46,029 nucleotides of DNA, taken from UHGV virus genome UHGV-0229940, one strand, 5' to 3'. How positions within the stretch are numbered: position 1 is the first letter of the stretch; the number at the start of each line of letters is the position of its first letter. The notes under the pieces were generated by a model. It did no database searches. It was not told where the DNA came from and saw only the letters and a list, made by a program, of their open reading frames with translations. This DNA comes from a virus. Positions 1-43,530 of this stretch are shown piece by piece. A program made the translations under genes and the position numbers.

Positions 1-149
1 ATTTTGCAAAGTACTTGTAAGGGAGCTGTTAAGGGCTACCAAGCAGATATACATCTTCTACAGATATTTTTCAGTTCCTTCAAAGACCCTAAAAAATGAC
101 TTGATAACCCTATTTTATAAAAATTTTAAAATTCTGAATAATTACCTAT

Positions 150-560
150 ACAGTCTTCTAAAAATACAGGCATAAACAGGCTTATAAGATACCTTGTTAG
201 TACCGTGTTAGACCTTGTGAGATAAGGCCTGTAAAGATATTCCTGTTAAGTTTGTTAAAACAGTCTATATAGAGGCTTAGTAATACCTAGTGAACACCTA
301 TAGAGGGTATCATAGCTTACCTAGAGATTAAGAGGTGTATAGGAGCTTCTAAGAGGATGTAGAGAGATGGTTAAGGTGATTGTATAGATTGTTAAGAAGG
401 CTTGTTAGAAGAGTGTTTAGATGGCTATTTAGAAGGGCTATACAGAGGGCTATTAAGACCACTAGATAGTTACTAAGATACTATATAGTACTATATAACT
501 ATATAGAGAGTAAGATTAAGAAGGTTGTTAAGAAGGATAGATATTTTATTCACATATGAT
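150..560. repeat. Non-coding GA-rich array of degenerate short direct repeats (TTAAGARGG, TAGAGGG, CTATATAG) with almost no C on the plus strand
   Basis: No ORF of 60 aa or more in any frame over 1-640; about 10 copies of AAGAGG-like words spaced roughly 20-30 bp apart; strong strand compositional skew. Confidence 0.7.
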
Positions 561-585
561 GGTGACCCAGAGGTTGGGACAACCG

Positions 586-628
586 ATAAAATTTTATAAA
601 AATTAAAAAGCCCCCAATTAAGGAGGCT
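586..628 (-). terminator. Rho-independent terminator candidate ending the leftward operon
   Basis: Imperfect 7 bp inverted repeat AGCCCCC/GGAGGCT (609-628) followed on the minus strand by a T-rich run (complement of 586-608), just downstream of the stop of CDS 640-1263. Confidence 0.45.
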
Positions 629-639
629 CTTAAGATATT

Positions 640-1263
640 TTAAATCAGGCTTTCTAAAACTGTCTTCAAGGATGACTTAGTTGTCTGGTAAAAATGAGTG
701 AACCCATTATTGTTATCGAATATCTGCATCATGATATCATCTCCCTTGATTGGGTACACTCGGATATCATAGTGAAACCCATTAAAGACAGCAGAACCAT
801 TACAGAACACACTAAAATCACTTGCTGAGATGTACTCTTCATGACCTGTGATTTTTATACAGACACCCTTACTTGGTCTCTTAGGGTTGATATCTTCCAT
901 CACAGACATACTCTGTCCACCAAGAGATACCATAGTGACCACTTTACGGTTCTTCTGTTTAAAGTACATCTTAACTTTCTGCAAAGTGTCTTCATAGAAT
1001 GGATAAGACCTTTCTACAAAGATTCCTTCAAGTGGCTCTTTACCATTTTCAACTTCTCGGTTATGCCGTACTGCAAAGATAATTTGTTCGAACCAGTCAA
1101 GATTTTCTTCGGAGAGTGCTTCCCGAACATCCTTCCAGTCAAGTACTAAGTAGTTACCTTCAACTTCTTTTAAGTTATCTTTTTCCATATCTATCACACC
1201 ATTATCGTAAAACTTGATATTCTGGTACTGCGAATTTATTACTATTGTTCTTGATGAGGTCAT
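640..1263 (-). CDS. hypothetical protein (start may be the internal Met at 1188, which avoids overlap with the upstream gene)
   Basis: 207 aa ORF in six-frame track; overlaps the upstream ORF by 62 nt if the first Met is used. Confidence 0.6.
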   Translation of the reverse strand: MTSSRTIVINSQYQNIKFYDNGVIDMEKDNLKEVEGNYLVLDWKDVREALSEENLDWFEQIIFAVRHNREVENGKEPLEGIFVERSYPFYEDTLQKVKMYFKQKNRKVVTMVSLGGQSMSVMEDINPKRPSKGVCIKITGHEEYISASDFSVFCNGSAVFNGFHYDIRVYPIKGDDIMMQIFDNNNGFTHFYQTTKSSLKTVLESLI

Positions 1264-1666
1264 CCTCTGAAACTAAAAATGTAATACCACATAAGTGTCT
1301 GTAACGACTATCATACTCGAATATCTTAAACAGATATTTACCATCATGATAAACCTGTTGCACTTCACCTTCTGCAACAATCTCGCCTGTAATAAAATTT
1401 TTTAGTTTATACACATTACCAACTTTAGGTACTGTTTTCATCTCAGGCTCTTTTAGTGCTACACCTATTTTTGCATCACCGAGTAAATGAGAACTCTCAA
1501 AAGCTACGTGTTTCATATAAGCTTCTGAGCATTCCCAGATAAAACAATGTACAAGAACCTTAGCAGCATGTCTTGAGCAATTCAACTTATCACAAATCTC
1601 TTTGTACATCTCATCTTTAGTTGAGTTGTCAAGCATTGCTCTTTGCACTACTTCTTTAATTTTCAT
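1202..1666 (-). CDS. hypothetical protein
   Basis: 154 aa ORF; co-oriented and tightly packed with neighbours. Confidence 0.6.
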   Translation of the reverse strand: MKIKEVVQRAMLDNSTKDEMYKEICDKLNCSRHAAKVLVHCFIWECSEAYMKHVAFESSHLLGDAKIGVALKEPEMKTVPKVGNVYKLKNFITGEIVAEGEVQQVYHDGKYLFKIFEYDSRYRHLCGITFLVSEDDLIKNNSNKFAVPEYQVLR

Positions 1667-2084
1667 AAGCTCTCCGAATAACCCTATTAAGCATCTCTAA
1701 AGTCAGCTTTCCAGATTCTAAATGTGGCATAACAAGCTTTAAAGCTTTTTCAACATCATGCACAACATCTATTATACCTTCTGCATAGGCTTCTACAAGG
1801 ATATCTTTTACATTTTGTGATTTACCTTTTTGTGGTATCACTAGACGCATATCAAACTCATTTGCTTGAGGATGGTTCTTACCACGCCAGAAACCGTCCT
1901 TATCAAAGCTTATAAAGTTATCCTCATTAAAATTAATACCACAAACCTTAAACTTATCTAAAACTATGCAGTTGAGAGGGTAATCATCACTTGCATCATT
2001 CATTCCAAGAAACTTAACAGTAGCTATATACCTCTGTGTCTTTGCATCTACAACGTCAAGCTCTTTACCTATAAGTTCTTTCAT
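1656..2084 (-). CDS. hypothetical protein
   Basis: 142 aa ORF; short overlap with the downstream gene typical of phage operons. Confidence 0.6.
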   Translation of the reverse strand: MKELIGKELDVVDAKTQRYIATVKFLGMNDASDDYPLNCIVLDKFKVCGINFNEDNFISFDKDGFWRGKNHPQANEFDMRLVIPQKGKSQNVKDILVEAYAEGIIDVVHDVEKALKLVMPHLESGKLTLEMLNRVIRRAYEN

Positions 2085-2137
2085 TTCGCTACCTTCTAAG
2101 TTTCTACAAAGGGGCTATCAAGTAACCCCTCAAGCTA

Positions 2138-2362
2138 CTACTCAGACTTTTCAGTCTTCTTATCGGATTTCTTACTAGTCTTCTTCTCAGCTTTCTGTTC
2201 AGGCTCCTTCTCAGAAGTTGCCTTAATAACCATATCAAGAAGTTCTGATAAGTCGCTCTTCAGCAAAGTAACAGGCTGCTCATTGTAGAAGTTTTTGTCA
2301 AGATAAACTTTGAACTCTTCAATAGAAGGAAATCCAAAAATTGGTACAGGTGTCTTAATCAT
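2138..2362 (-). CDS. hypothetical small protein with lysine-rich acidic C-terminus
   Basis: 74 aa ORF. Confidence 0.45.
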   Translation of the reverse strand: MIKTPVPIFGFPSIEEFKVYLDKNFYNEQPVTLLKSDLSELLDMVIKATSEKEPEQKAEKKTSKKSDKKTEKSE

Positions 2363-2438
2363 TACTTAGTTTCTCCATAGGCATCTTTTAAGATTGCCTT
2401 GTTAATCATTTCAGCGATTGCAAAACGAACACATACAG

Positions 2439-2972
2439 CTATAATTGTAGGTTGCATTCTTTACTTACCTCTTCAAGTTTAACCTCAGAGTCCTTAAGTC
2501 GTTTCTTATGAACTCTGAATCTCATTAGTGAGATGATGATACCAGCTAAAGGTACAGCATACAAGTACCAAACATCATATACCTTTGCGGTAATCTGTGT
2601 AATGGTCAAGTCTTGAGCTATGTAACTGATTGCTGATACTGCAAGTAATGTTGCTAGGAAAAATGCCAGTACCATGACAATACTTAAACAACCTCTGGCA
2701 TGGTGTTCATGCTTAATGCACTTATTCTTTTCGTCAACAACCCTGTTGTAGTCGTTTGTAAAGTCTCTGTAGAAAGCTTTCAAGTATTCTTTATTGTAGC
2801 CTTCAAAGCAACCTGTACCGTACCAATAATCACCACCAAAATGTGCTATGATACCAGTATCTCCATTTGGTTTTGTTACTCTTAGGGAAGTATGATGGCG
2901 AGTATCCTGATAATCTATCTTGTATCTTTCTTCGTAAATCATTTTCCAACCCCTCTCAATCGTTTGTTCCAC
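2439..2972 (-). CDS. hypothetical membrane protein
   Basis: 177 aa ORF with a long hydrophobic stretch (LSIVMVLAFFLATLLAVSAISYIA ... LYAVPLAGIIISLM) predicting two transmembrane helices. Confidence 0.6.
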   Translation of the reverse strand: MEQTIERGWKMIYEERYKIDYQDTRHHTSLRVTKPNGDTGIIAHFGGDYWYGTGCFEGYNKEYLKAFYRDFTNDYNRVVDEKNKCIKHEHHARGCLSIVMVLAFFLATLLAVSAISYIAQDLTITQITAKVYDVWYLYAVPLAGIIISLMRFRVHKKRLKDSEVKLEEVSKECNLQL

Positions 2973-3172
2973 TCAAGGTCAACAAGTCTTTGCAGGACTT
3001 TCCCTCTAGGTGTTACACCTTTTAAGTCTGCATCGTAGCAACGGTAAAAGTCACCTTCAGCGTGTTTACCATAGCATTTCCTGATATTCTGACTTCTACG
3101 ATATTGTTCTAATAGAGACAGTCTGTAGTAATCTTCAACTGTAGTTAGTTTTTTCATTCTTTCACCACGCAT
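2939..3172 (-). CDS. hypothetical small basic protein
   Basis: 77 aa ORF. Confidence 0.4.
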   Translation of the reverse strand: MRGERMKKLTTVEDYYRLSLLEQYRRSQNIRKCYGKHAEGDFYRCYDADLKGVTPRGKVLQRLVDLEWNKRLRGVGK

Positions 3173-15665: not shown

Positions 15666-15866
15666 ATGAGTGAGACCGTTTACAAAGAACTTTATGAAGC
15701 TAATAAAAAGCTAGAATTTATGCAGAACACTATCATGGCAATTGCAGATAGATTATCTGTAGCAACAGGTATTGATATTAAAGAAGCATCTATGGATGCA
15801 CTTCTTGATGCTGTTGATGCAAAGTTCGAAGTTAAGAAAGAAGAGACTGCTACAGACTCTGAATAA
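15666..15866 (+). CDS. hypothetical small acidic protein upstream of terminase
   Basis: 66 aa ORF with SD GGAGAAAACA; terminase small subunit role not supported by motifs. Confidence 0.5.
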   Translation: MSETVYKELYEANKKLEFMQNTIMAIADRLSVATGIDIKEASMDALLDAVDAKFEVKKEETATDSE

Positions 15867-15887
15867 TTCTATTTGCGGAGGCGCTTA

Positions 15888-17489
15888 ATGGACTTAAATG
15901 CTGTTAAGCAGAAGCGAGTGGAAGATGTTAGGAAAGTCCTAGCTGGAGAGTTGGGGCTTTCTGATGAAGTAAAAGAAATTATTAAATCATTCGGTAAAGA
16001 CCCCTCTAAATTCCTTCCAACTCAAATTCTGACTTTATTAAGATACACACCAGACCAAGTTCGCCTTATCTTTAAATTGATGACTGATAAGAACTATGTA
16101 GCCCCTCAGCCGGGTTCTCAAGAGGTCTTTTTAAATACTAATGCTGACTTGGTTCTCTATGGTGGTGCTGCTGGTGCTGGTAAGACTGCCGCATTGTTAA
16201 TGGACTCTTTAAGATTTATTGAAGACCCTAACTATAATGCTGTATATTTCCGTCGAAATACAACACAGTTACAAGGTGGTTTATGGCCTGCTGCAAAGAA
16301 ACTATTTGGTAAGTTTGGTGGGATTCCTCACGAGCAGAAAATGACTATCACATTCCCTTCTGGGGCAACTATCAAGTTTACCTACCTAGAACTTGAAAAG
16401 CACGCTGAAGGTCATCAGGGTATTGAATACTCAGCTATTTACTTTGACGAAGGTACACACTTCTCTGCTTCACAGATTTCATACCTACAAACCCGTCTAC
16501 GTTCTGGTGCTGAAGGCGATTCATACATGAAGATTTCCATGAACCCAGATAGAGACCACTTTATTTACGATTGGGTAGAACCATTCTTAGACGAAGAAGG
16601 TTATCCAGACCCTGAAAAGTGTGGTCGTATTCGTTGGTATGTAATGAATGATGGTGTGATGGTTTCTGATTGGGAGAGAGACAAGATTCTTGAAATGTTC
16701 CCTCTTGAGATTCCTCAAACATACACCTTCATCTCTGGTACGATTGATGATAACCCAATCCTTGACTTCTTAGAGCCTAAGTACCGTGGTAAGTTGGAAA
16801 ACAACACTCCTGTAAACGTTGCAAGACTTCGTTTCGGTAACTGGAAGGCTCGTGCAGAAGGTTCAAACTATTGGCAAAGACAATGGTGTGAAATTGTTGA
16901 TTCACTCCCAGAAGATGTATTTGATGTTAGAGCATGGGACTTAGCAGCAACTTTACCATCTGAGATTAACCCTAATCCAGACTGGACAGCAGGTGTTAAG
17001 ATGGGTAAATCTAAAAAAGACGGTTGCTATTATATCATTGATGTAGTAAGATTTAGAGATAGACCCTCTGGAGTCGAAACACAAATCAATTTGACTGCTG
17101 AAAGTGACGGTAAGCGAACTGGTATTTTTATCCCTCAAGACCCAGGCGCTGCTGGTAAATCCTACGCAACATCCCTCATCAGGAAACTTGCCGAGAAAGG
17201 TTATCGAGCAAGAGCCAAACCAACAAATAAAGATAAAGTTACCCGCTTTGCGGGATTTTCTGCTGCTTCTGAAGCTGGACTTGTAAAAGTCTTGAGAGGT
17301 AGTTGGAATGAAGCTTACTTTCAAGAACTTGAAGGCTTTTGTGGTGACGGTAAAACTAAAGATGACCAAGTGGATGCTACCAGTGATGCTTTCAACAGTC
17401 TTAACGAAGTTAAATTATTCAAGCCACCATCAATGGGTGCTCACACAGATTTAGTGAGAGGAAACCCATATGAGGGGCTTAGACGTTGA
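15888..17489 (+). CDS. terminase large subunit
   Basis: Walker A motif LYGGAAGAGKT; size and position ahead of the portal; ATG at 15888 with GGAGG SD preferred over the TTG at 15873. Confidence 0.85.
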   Translation: MDLNAVKQKRVEDVRKVLAGELGLSDEVKEIIKSFGKDPSKFLPTQILTLLRYTPDQVRLIFKLMTDKNYVAPQPGSQEVFLNTNADLVLYGGAAGAGKTAALLMDSLRFIEDPNYNAVYFRRNTTQLQGGLWPAAKKLFGKFGGIPHEQKMTITFPSGATIKFTYLELEKHAEGHQGIEYSAIYFDEGTHFSASQISYLQTRLRSGAEGDSYMKISMNPDRDHFIYDWVEPFLDEEGYPDPEKCGRIRWYVMNDGVMVSDWERDKILEMFPLEIPQTYTFISGTIDDNPILDFLEPKYRGKLENNTPVNVARLRFGNWKARAEGSNYWQRQWCEIVDSLPEDVFDVRAWDLAATLPSEINPNPDWTAGVKMGKSKKDGCYYIIDVVRFRDRPSGVETQINLTAESDGKRTGIFIPQDPGAAGKSYATSLIRKLAEKGYRARAKPTNKDKVTRFAGFSAASEAGLVKVLRGSWNEAYFQELEGFCGDGKTKDDQVDATSDAFNSLNEVKLFKPPSMGAHTDLVRGNPYEGLRR

Positions 17490-42962: not shown

Positions 42963-43010
42963 AATGACCTCAAAGTTATATTAAATTTTGTATTACATTT
43001 AGTATAAAAA

Positions 43011-43051
43011 TAAGCTATAACACCTGACTTGTCAACAGATTTTATAGCTTA
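43011..43051. promoter_or_regulatory. 10 bp perfect inverted repeat TAAGCTATAA/TTATAGCTTA flanking a TTGACA box (candidate promoter/operator for the leftward gene 42579-42962)
   Basis: Reverse complement of 43027-43032 is TTGACA; the inverted repeat arms are 43011-43020 and 43042-43051. Confidence 0.35.
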
Positions 43052-43070
43052 TTTGGCAGATTTTTTATAA

Positions 43071-43470
43071 GGCTACTGCCATCCTTCCATACTTTACCGA
43101 ACATCACCCTACTGAACCCGACCCTACCTCACCCGACCCAACCGAACCGTACCGAGCACAGCCTTATTAAAAGACCCTGTTTAAAGACCTTTTAAAAAGG
43201 CAAGTCTCATTTTAATGTAGCTGAGACTAACTACCCATAACTTACTTCACTAAACCAGACCTTACTTCACTAAACCAAGCATTACTTCACCAAACTATAC
43301 CTTGCATCCCACACCACACCTTACCAAACATCACTTAAAAACCCTTTTAAAAAGCTCTTAAGTAATGTAATCGGATTTTAATGTAGCTCCGATTAACTAC
43401 CCATACCAAATCAGACCTTACCGAACCCTACCTCACAACACACCACCATACCGGACAAAACCACACCTCA
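43071..43470. repeat. repeat family array A: units containing a conserved-loop hairpin, ACTACCCATA box, pyrimidine-rich pentamer repeats and CACTTAAAAACCC / TTAAAAGACCCT boxes
   Basis: Hairpins at 43203-43228 (AGTCTCA/TGAGACT) and 43369-43394 (AATCGGA/TCCGATT) share the loop TTTTAATGTAGC; units are homologous to region 44652-44945. Confidence 0.75.
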
Positions 43471-43487
43471 TTAAAAGACCCTCTTAA

Positions 43488-43520
43488 AGACCTTTTAAAA
43501 AGGAGCCTCCGAAGAGGCTG
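43488..43520 (-). terminator. Rho-independent terminator after gene 43531-43971 (stem AGCCTC/GAGGCT, UUCG loop on minus strand)
   Basis: 6 bp stem at 43504-43519 with CGAA loop on plus strand, preceded on plus strand by TTTTAAAAAGG. Confidence 0.55.
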
Positions 43521-43530
43521 CCTAGTCAAC

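Follow-up and report, generated by a model that had tools for sequence, protein, structure and literature searches.

A non-coding array of short repeated words next to the putative terminal repeat of a Felix O1-type phage

The window analysed here is a stretch of 46,029 nucleotides that represents half of a Felixounavirus genome. BLAST searches with positions 1-3000 of the window returned 255 phage records, 177 of which cover at least 80% of the query; identity is 90-95% and nearly all of the matches belong to Felixounavirus or other Ounavirinae. Positions 1-640 alone have matches in 258 records. Mapped onto annotated relatives such as ASO1A, the first position of the window lies in a gene-less stretch of approximately 1.6 kb that is bounded by convergent terminators, one at the end of the rightward operon and the other belonging to the leftward operon. 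The first gene of the leftward operon ends at position 640, and positions 1-640 form the right third of this ORF-free block, which extends approximately 1 kb leftward past the window start in every relative. The intrinsic terminator of the leftward operon is encoded on the minus strand at 606..631, consists of a 10-pair stem and a T-run, and is annotated in ASO1A and AYO145A. The initial annotation had singled out 150-560 as a non-coding array just beyond the terminator of the leftward operon, a placement borne out by the strong minus-strand terminator at 631-606, up to which 150-560 runs rightward. The claim that this region contains no ORF is also supported, the longest being 37 aa, and across 14 relatives the longest ORF shifts its position and strand. 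The feature exists but was drawn too narrowly, because the repeat-rich ORF-free block runs from 1 to approximately 600 and continues leftward. Several records annotate short "hypothetical proteins" within this ORF-free block. No mention of the block is made in the paper on the Felix O1 genome, which only infers short terminal repeats. The accessible literature gives lengths of the terminal repeat (DTR) for a few such phages, and no description of the block or its words was found in it.

The DTR reference set consists of three close relatives from two laboratories that were analysed with PhageTerm, with lengths of 581-613 bp. Pr103Blw has an annotated short DTR of 581 bp determined by PhageTerm (PMC8303462), and both of its copies are identical. 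The DTR of Ro111lw is 613 bp (PMC6454146) and that of I14.1, which was analysed with PhageTerm in a different laboratory (PMC11737134), is 581 bp. All three start with GCCCCCTTAACATTTTC and end with ...TGTTAAGGGCTACC, the sequence found at 27-40 of the window, and the final 40 bp of the Ro111lw DTR match positions 1-40 without a difference. Because positions 1-40 correspond to the end of the DTRs that PhageTerm identified in the relatives, the right DTR boundary of this phage is placed by homology at 40|41, and its candidate ends are GCCCCC... and ...GGGCTACC (position 40). Positions 1..40 on the plus strand would be the last 40 bp of the DTR, ending in ...GCTGTTAAGGGCTACC with a terminal TGTTAAGGG word at 27-35. 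With the boundary at 40|41, 150-560 would therefore be unique DNA located 110-520 bp inside the left genome end. The earlier suggestion of a genome-end or packaging region is thus right about the location, since the ends map in the same block by homology, but 150-560 is not itself the end. The ends reported for these phages differ by 1-3 nt between laboratories. A near-identical hexamer is present at the start and end of the DTR (GCCACT...GCCACT in the Erwinia phage MM7, GCCCCC...GCTACC in Felixounavirus; window 35-46), and it may be speculated that 5'-staggered cuts at two places followed by fill-in would yield such hexamer ends.

The first feature beyond the DTR boundary is a conserved block on the plus strand at 41..75 (AAGCAGATATACA ... 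AGATATTTTT) that is near-invariant among 14 phages of three genera. The next is an AT-rich box at 110..133, identified through the alignment and the repeat families, with an invariant core, CTATTTTATAAAAATTTTA (110-128). The A/T-only run is 23 bp in length at 111-133, and a near-copy of the box is found at 587-603. The most conserved block of the alignment is located at 176..221 on the plus strand and is composed of the palindrome-containing CTTATAAGAT (181-190) followed by a triplet at 191-221 of three tandem 10-11 bp words, ACCTTGTTAG, TACCGTGTTAG and ACCTTGTGAG. An invariant 28-mer from this block is present as an exact match in 21 IMG/VR contigs; its viral-contig matches are all 51-94 kb in length, mostly 81-94 kb, which is the size of Ounavirinae genomes. 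Additional TGT-words in the same single orientation (CTGTAAAG, CTGTTAAG, TTGTTAAA) are present on the plus strand at 229..259. An inverted repeat follows, with its left arm at 263..293 (CTATATAG-AGG-CTTAGTAA-TAC-CTAGTG), which is conserved and imperfect, and its right arm at 459..488 (CACTAG-ATAG-TTACTAAG-ATA-CTATATAG). This 29-bp repeat brackets a variable array, and in the alignment its columns 127-154 pair with 359-387, nearly all of them invariant. The region between the arms is composed of mixed words and purine spacers on the plus strand at 294..387 (CTATAGAGGG, CCTAGAGATTAAGAGG, GTATAGGAG, TTCTAAGAGG, TGTAGAGAG, GGTTAAGG and TTGTATAG, from sequence and alignment) and a plus-strand tandem array at 388..458 that was detected by TRF and has units of approximately 12 bp (TTGTTAAGAAGG, CTTGTTAGAAGA, GTGTTTAGATGG, CTATTTAGAAGG, GCTATACAGAGG and GCTATTAAGACC). 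Beyond the right arm, CTATATAA-CTATATAGAGAG and then TAAGATTAAGAAGGTTGTTAAGAAGGATAG occupy 489..545 on the plus strand (TRF 479-507), and the final feature at 546..570 is a conserved plus-strand block, TTATTCACATATGATGGTGACCCA, containing a match to the DnaA-box consensus (TTATTCACA).

The repeated units of this array are TGTTA(A)G-type words in a single orientation together with CTATANAG/CTAG-type words. A k-mer enrichment run over four complete junction regions from three genera identified two word families, CTTGTTA(G/A) and CTATATAG/CTATACAG/CTATAGAG. Within these four regions CTTGTTA is 39-fold enriched, with 44 copies on one strand and none on the other. In 150-560, YTGTTA(A)G occurs five times against an expected 0.17, and TGT[TA]{1,3}AG has ten plus-strand copies and a single minus-strand copy in the window array, where 1.15 would be expected. 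The TGT-words inside clusters are spaced 9-14 bp apart and the direct-repeat units measure 7-12 bp. The CTATATAG words, which had already been noticed in the initial annotation, were confirmed with three copies in 150-560 and none elsewhere in the 46-kb window. The 12-bp tandem unit CTTGTTAGAAGG at 388-458 differs in copy number between phages, with additional units in phiST56 and one fewer in VpaE1 and BPS15Q2, and TRF reported periods of 12 and 24 for the array. The use of TGTTAAG as a genome-wide polar signal was also considered and rejected. The word is over-represented about 2.5-fold outside the array too, in coding DNA (33 copies window-wide against 11.7 expected), and this is a codon-usage effect, because 17 of the 29 coding copies share a single codon phase (xxT-GTT-AAG) and their orientation is that of the coding strand.

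The same word recurs in the DTR, which opens with three inverted copies (CTTAACA) and closes with a direct array. Within the DTR, a distance of 3 nt separates CCCTTAACA from the left end, and one of 5 nt separates its complement, TGTTAAGGG, from the right end; TGTTAAG adjoins both boundaries in inverted orientation. On both flanks the TATAGAG words point away from the DTR, inverted copies of the CTTATAAGAT word are found beyond the two boundaries, at approximately 137 and 140 bp from them, and the two flanks have opposite GC skew. The T[AT]AG words within the DTR recur with a period of 10.5 bp (0 of 200 shuffles), and in 150-560 their period is approximately 11.5 bp and weakly significant.

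The initial annotation had described 150-560 as a sequence with almost no cytosine that carries roughly ten Shine-Dalgarno (SD)-like words at a spacing of 20-30 bp. The strand asymmetry is present, with 145 A, 127 T, 94 G and 45 C and a GC skew of +0.4 to +0.5, but the description was overstated, since C accounts for 11% of the region against 19% window-wide. The words AAGAGG, AAGAAGG and AGAGGG start at 302, 330, 351, 394, 444, 518 and 530, and 294..387 holds three of these seven exact copies. They are clearly enriched, as dinucleotide shuffles contain 0.76 +/- 0.91 copies, none of 2000 shuffles reaches seven, and only four of 1826 equal-sized windows on both strands of the 46 kb do so; their number, however, is seven and their spacing is 12-74 bp. 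An ATG followed by an immediate stop, said to come after several of the copies, is found in one case (AAGAGGATGTAG, 351-362), and two other ATGs after SD-like words are 2 and 5 codons before a stop. The SD-like words do not hold up as the repeat unit. They are instead the purine spacer or junction of the approximately 12-bp units, for example CTTGTTAG-AAGG and GCTATACAG-AGG, and AAGAAGG is the junction TTAAG|AAGG of the 12-bp tandem unit. The proportion of invariant columns is 56% in the SD-like words and 62% elsewhere in the region, and because they are slightly less conserved than the rest, these words are not what selection keeps. The SD-like purine words are best read as spacers or junctions of the units rather than as the functional element.

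One explanation built on these words is that transcription of the 150-600 plus strand yields a sponge RNA, rich in purines and poor in C, that titrates the 16S anti-SD, ribosomes or a CsrA-type protein. If true, this would be a phage-encoded translation sponge at the genome end with a dozen or so AAGG/GAGG/AAGAGG words. The excess of seven SD-like words is consistent with such an RNA, as is a plus strand that is G-rich and C-poor like a sense transcript, and the hairpin at 606-631 could stop a rightward transcript, although its T-run is on the other strand. Rfam analysis of 1-800 at a permissive threshold (E<=10) provided only chance leader and snoRNA matches far below gathering scores, and a sigma-70 promoter scan of 1-1300 identified no excess and no promoter upstream of the array. 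The single-strand fold has a z-score of only -1.96 for the plus strand and of -3.69 for the minus strand, the latter value coming from the terminator and the palindromic words. The alignment fold exhibits essentially no covariation (a term of -0.69 of -48.9 kcal/mol), and its paired columns are almost all invariant or palindromic words. Only three AGGA motifs were read by eye in 150-560, and the many GGA loops, a promoter and terminator on the same strand and a known family, as in CsrB/RsmZ-type sponges, were not found. No Felixounavirus transcriptome was found in literature searches. The earlier proposal of an RNA titrating a GGA- or anti-SD-binding factor was not upheld by the Rfam, promoter, covariation and AGGA results, and a sponge RNA is considered very unlikely.

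Conservation was assessed with an alignment of 13 phages from Felixounavirus, Suspvirus and Mooglevirus. Invariant columns make up 61% of 150-560 compared with 40% and 28% of the next two genes, and the best codon position of the first adjacent gene is 58% invariant. The highest bins are 181-210 (97%), which covers CTTATAAGAT and the first two words of the triplet, 481-510 (90%), 31-60 at the DTR boundary (80%), 241-270 (77%) and 541-570 (73%); bin 271-300 is 67% invariant and the tandem-array bin is the lowest at 20%. Invariant columns amount to 82% in the CTATANAG/CTAG words and to 58% outside them (p about 0.01), and the TGT-words in 150-560, when averaged, show no conservation above that of the sequence around them (63% against 61%). 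The full 1.6 kb junction is conserved to a similar degree, with the sharpest peaks at both DTR boundaries. The check for conservation in related phages that had been proposed with the initial annotation therefore gave a positive answer, and conservation above that of the neighbouring genes argues that this is not simple spacer DNA. A functionless spacer of slippage-prone, low-complexity DNA between convergent operons would explain why the 12-bp units vary in number and why small inserts come and go. It is nevertheless highly improbable given that 61% of columns are invariant across three genera, above the flanking genes, with individual blocks at 90-97%, and that the word array is kept in a fourth genus without alignable sequence.

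Two such inserts are absent from this phage. A 24-bp insert with the hairpin core TGAGGTAGATTCTACCGAATCAAC is located between 56 and 57 in four aligned phages; it is patchy across genera, has near-copies in the terminator region of Mordin and KPS64, and behaves like a tiny mobile palindromic element. A 32-bp insert, ACCTAATGGGTTACTGTTAAGTAACACAGATA, is present at approximately 320 in five aligned phages that are scattered against the phylogeny, and contains a palindrome, GTTACTGTTAAGTAAC, surrounding a TGTTAAG word.

The fourth genus is Kolesnikvirus, whose member Erwinia phage Tian does not align to this region beyond the terminator. Tian encodes an ORF-free gap of 1.4 kb at the same map position, in which TGTTAAG occurs ten times on one strand (0.18 expected) and not at all on the other. 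The boundary blocks ATTTTGCAAAG and AAGCAGATATACA are kept in Tian, the latter also in MM7, and the order of boundary, A/T box and three words is the same. The left boundary for Kolesnikvirus was set at TTA|GCCAC from homology alone, and independent Kolesnikvirus records start at most 3 nt from it. The DTR of MM7 is 444 bp and runs from TTAGCCAC to GGCCACTAA. The match in the Erwinia phages indicates that the layout holds across the subfamily. In MM7 approximately 45 bp, and not 5 bp, separate the last TGTTAAG from the right boundary, so the link between word and cut site is not universal.

The preferred reading, to which we give about an even chance, is that 150-560 works at the DNA level as an array of sites for cutting the ends and packaging the genome, and forms the DTR-proximal, left-end part of the concatemer junction. 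We infer both the packaging role and the identity of the protein that would bind the array. Packaging is favoured because the same word marks the mapped ends of relatives, because the array is one-stranded, phased and conserved across the subfamily, and because its words are restricted to this part of the genome. The TGTTA(A)G-type words would be recognised by a protein of the phage, for which the terminase or a small accessory or TerS-like subunit is the most likely candidate. Such words would adjoin both DTR boundaries, run through the DTR as an array in phase with the helix, and extend into the flank, where they make up the invariant triplet at 191-221 and the tandem array of 12-bp units. 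The bendable A/T-rich box and the palindromic CTATATAG/CTTATAAG words may help to build the nucleoprotein complex, which would position two cuts approximately 580 bp apart and start packaging with duplication of the DTR. Pfam and PHROGs searches with ten flanking proteins provided no known domain or function, and thus neither an initiator-like gene nor a lead to the binding protein. TerL is encoded at 15873-17489, approximately 15 kb from the array. The 66-aa ORF directly upstream of TerL (15666-15866, plus strand) belongs to phrog_4397, a function-unassigned family with no known fold, and is a candidate small terminase or DNA-recognition subunit. Tian has a 60-aa ORF in the same position upstream of its terminase gene, and tblastn at E<=1e-3 gave no link between the two.

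The main and serious rival to packaging is a replication origin, in which the A/T box at 110-133 would be the site of unwinding and a phage initiator would use the triplet at 191-221 and the 12-bp array as its iterons. The invariant A/T box 55 bp upstream of three invariant direct repeats fits an origin equally well, and the same order of box and repeats is found in Tian. The array words occur only in this part of the genome, a single match to the DnaA-box consensus is located at 546-554, and the position on the DTR flank resembles that of secondary origins near the T7 ends. Iteron origins such as lambda ori, P1 oriR and plasmid oriV similarly feature direct repeats beside an A/T-rich segment. 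The repeats here differ from theirs in length and spacing, however, being 7-12 bp rather than the usual 17-22 bp of iterons, and the initiator gene, DnaA-box cluster and GATC sites of such origins are missing. The DnaA consensus scan gave the single match TTATTCACA, which is not conserved in the other genera; GATC and IHF sites are absent, and no initiator-like gene is encoded nearby. The presence of the same word at the mapped genome ends points to the cutting machinery rather than to an origin. A second region, 42963-43530, is an equally good origin candidate, and an origin at the array is considered unlikely.

This second region is also ORF-free and repeat-rich and is located in the leftward gene cluster. 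It consists of two units of approximately 300 bp, each with ATTTTAATGTAGCT..ACTACCCATA, C-rich tandem repeats of 15-20 bp (43095-43148 and 43241-43303) and a AAAGACCTTTTAAAAAGG hairpin, and might function as an origin, as an array of promoters or as a small-RNA locus. The lack of GATC extends to the whole of positions 1-46029, where there are no sites against 131 +/- 11 expected, and to the 85-kb Tian genome, which looks like a subfamily-wide avoidance of Dam/MboI-type sites.

The array could alternatively be an architectural or entry-related element that is bound by a host nucleoid protein or RNA polymerase, or that has a T5-like injection-stop role; the entry-related version would control DNA ejection, end protection or local compaction. 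The helical phasing of the words fits this explanation, and the block is found at both genome ends, so that one of its two copies enters the cell first. The complement of TGTTAA, TTAACA, is a near-consensus -35 hexamer, and the whole junction has nine promoter-like matches against 4.8 +/- 2.2 in shuffles, most with TTAACA as the first hexamer. These matches are nevertheless all weak, at 9/12, with no excess in the part of the junction within the window, and a scan of 1-700 identified no IHF or Fis consensus sites. The injection-stop region of T5 lies within a 10-kb repeat and is tied to two-step DNA transfer. It is likewise a large non-coding block rich in repeats and palindromes near the terminal repeat of a virulent coliphage, but the array described here has no DnaA-box cluster and two-step transfer is not known for Felix O1-type phages. 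An architectural or entry-related element is regarded as distinctly improbable.

Among sites that terminases are known to bind, lambda cosB and the pac-type sites of SPP1 and P22 provide a comparison for the packaging reading. In lambda cosN-cosB and pac sites, as here, a bendable A/T segment and three direct repeats come within 100-200 bp after the cut site, where the repeated word is present as well; repeated elements are thus adjacent to the cleavage site, as placed by homology in this phage. Here, in contrast, TerS is only a candidate, the terminase genes lie elsewhere in the genome, no IHF site is present, and a DTR requires two cuts approximately 580 bp apart.

By analogy, the closest known counterparts would be the short-repeat arrays SRL and SRR, which Dunn and Studier reportedly described in 1983 as flanking the 160-bp terminal repetition of T7, and the likeness is one of kind. 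At the T7 left end, 12 NNTAAAG words are found in one orientation with 13-bp spacing at 175-357, after the 160-bp repeat, in a sequence with 11% G. Both arrays are ORF-free and directly internal to a short DTR, the one described here filling 41-600. Both use a 7-8 bp word with at least ten copies in one orientation at 11-13 bp spacing, with copies reaching into the repeat and a strong strand asymmetry (11% G in T7 and 11% C here). The T7 word differs from TGTTA(A)G and CTATANAG, there is no sequence homology between the arrays, and the BLAST matches are restricted to Ounavirinae; the two are therefore of the same kind rather than of the same family by descent. The array of this phage is also more heterogeneous than that of T7, with more than one word family, more degenerate words, palindromic words, a 29-bp inverted-repeat bracket and a variable tandem block, and its DTR is 3.6-fold longer and itself mostly array. 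We know of no established function for the T7 arrays, and the analogy is therefore no proof of a packaging role. This phage has no T7-type RNA polymerase (PMC3185647), and the coupling of junction processing to transcription in T7 therefore cannot apply.

Felix O1-type phages are widely used in typing, biocontrol and therapy for Salmonella and E. coli, and hundreds of their genomes have been deposited opened at arbitrary points, with the 1.6 kb block unannotated or filled with spurious small ORFs. The conserved left boundary sequence TA|GCCCCCTTAACA and its counterpart at the right boundary, TGTTAAGGGCTACC|AAGCAG, together with the subfamily-wide TGTTAAG, could serve as a rule for genome orientation. 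The block would also be a cis-element to retain when such phages are engineered or rebooted; a PhageMaP knockout study of the Felixounavirus Bas63 targeted genes only. It may further offer a tractable second system besides T7 for the role of repeat arrays at short terminal repeats, and involves no new principle. Among the deposited records, that of I14.1 (PP892526.1) is Felixounavirus by sequence and Tequintavirus in its taxonomy line.
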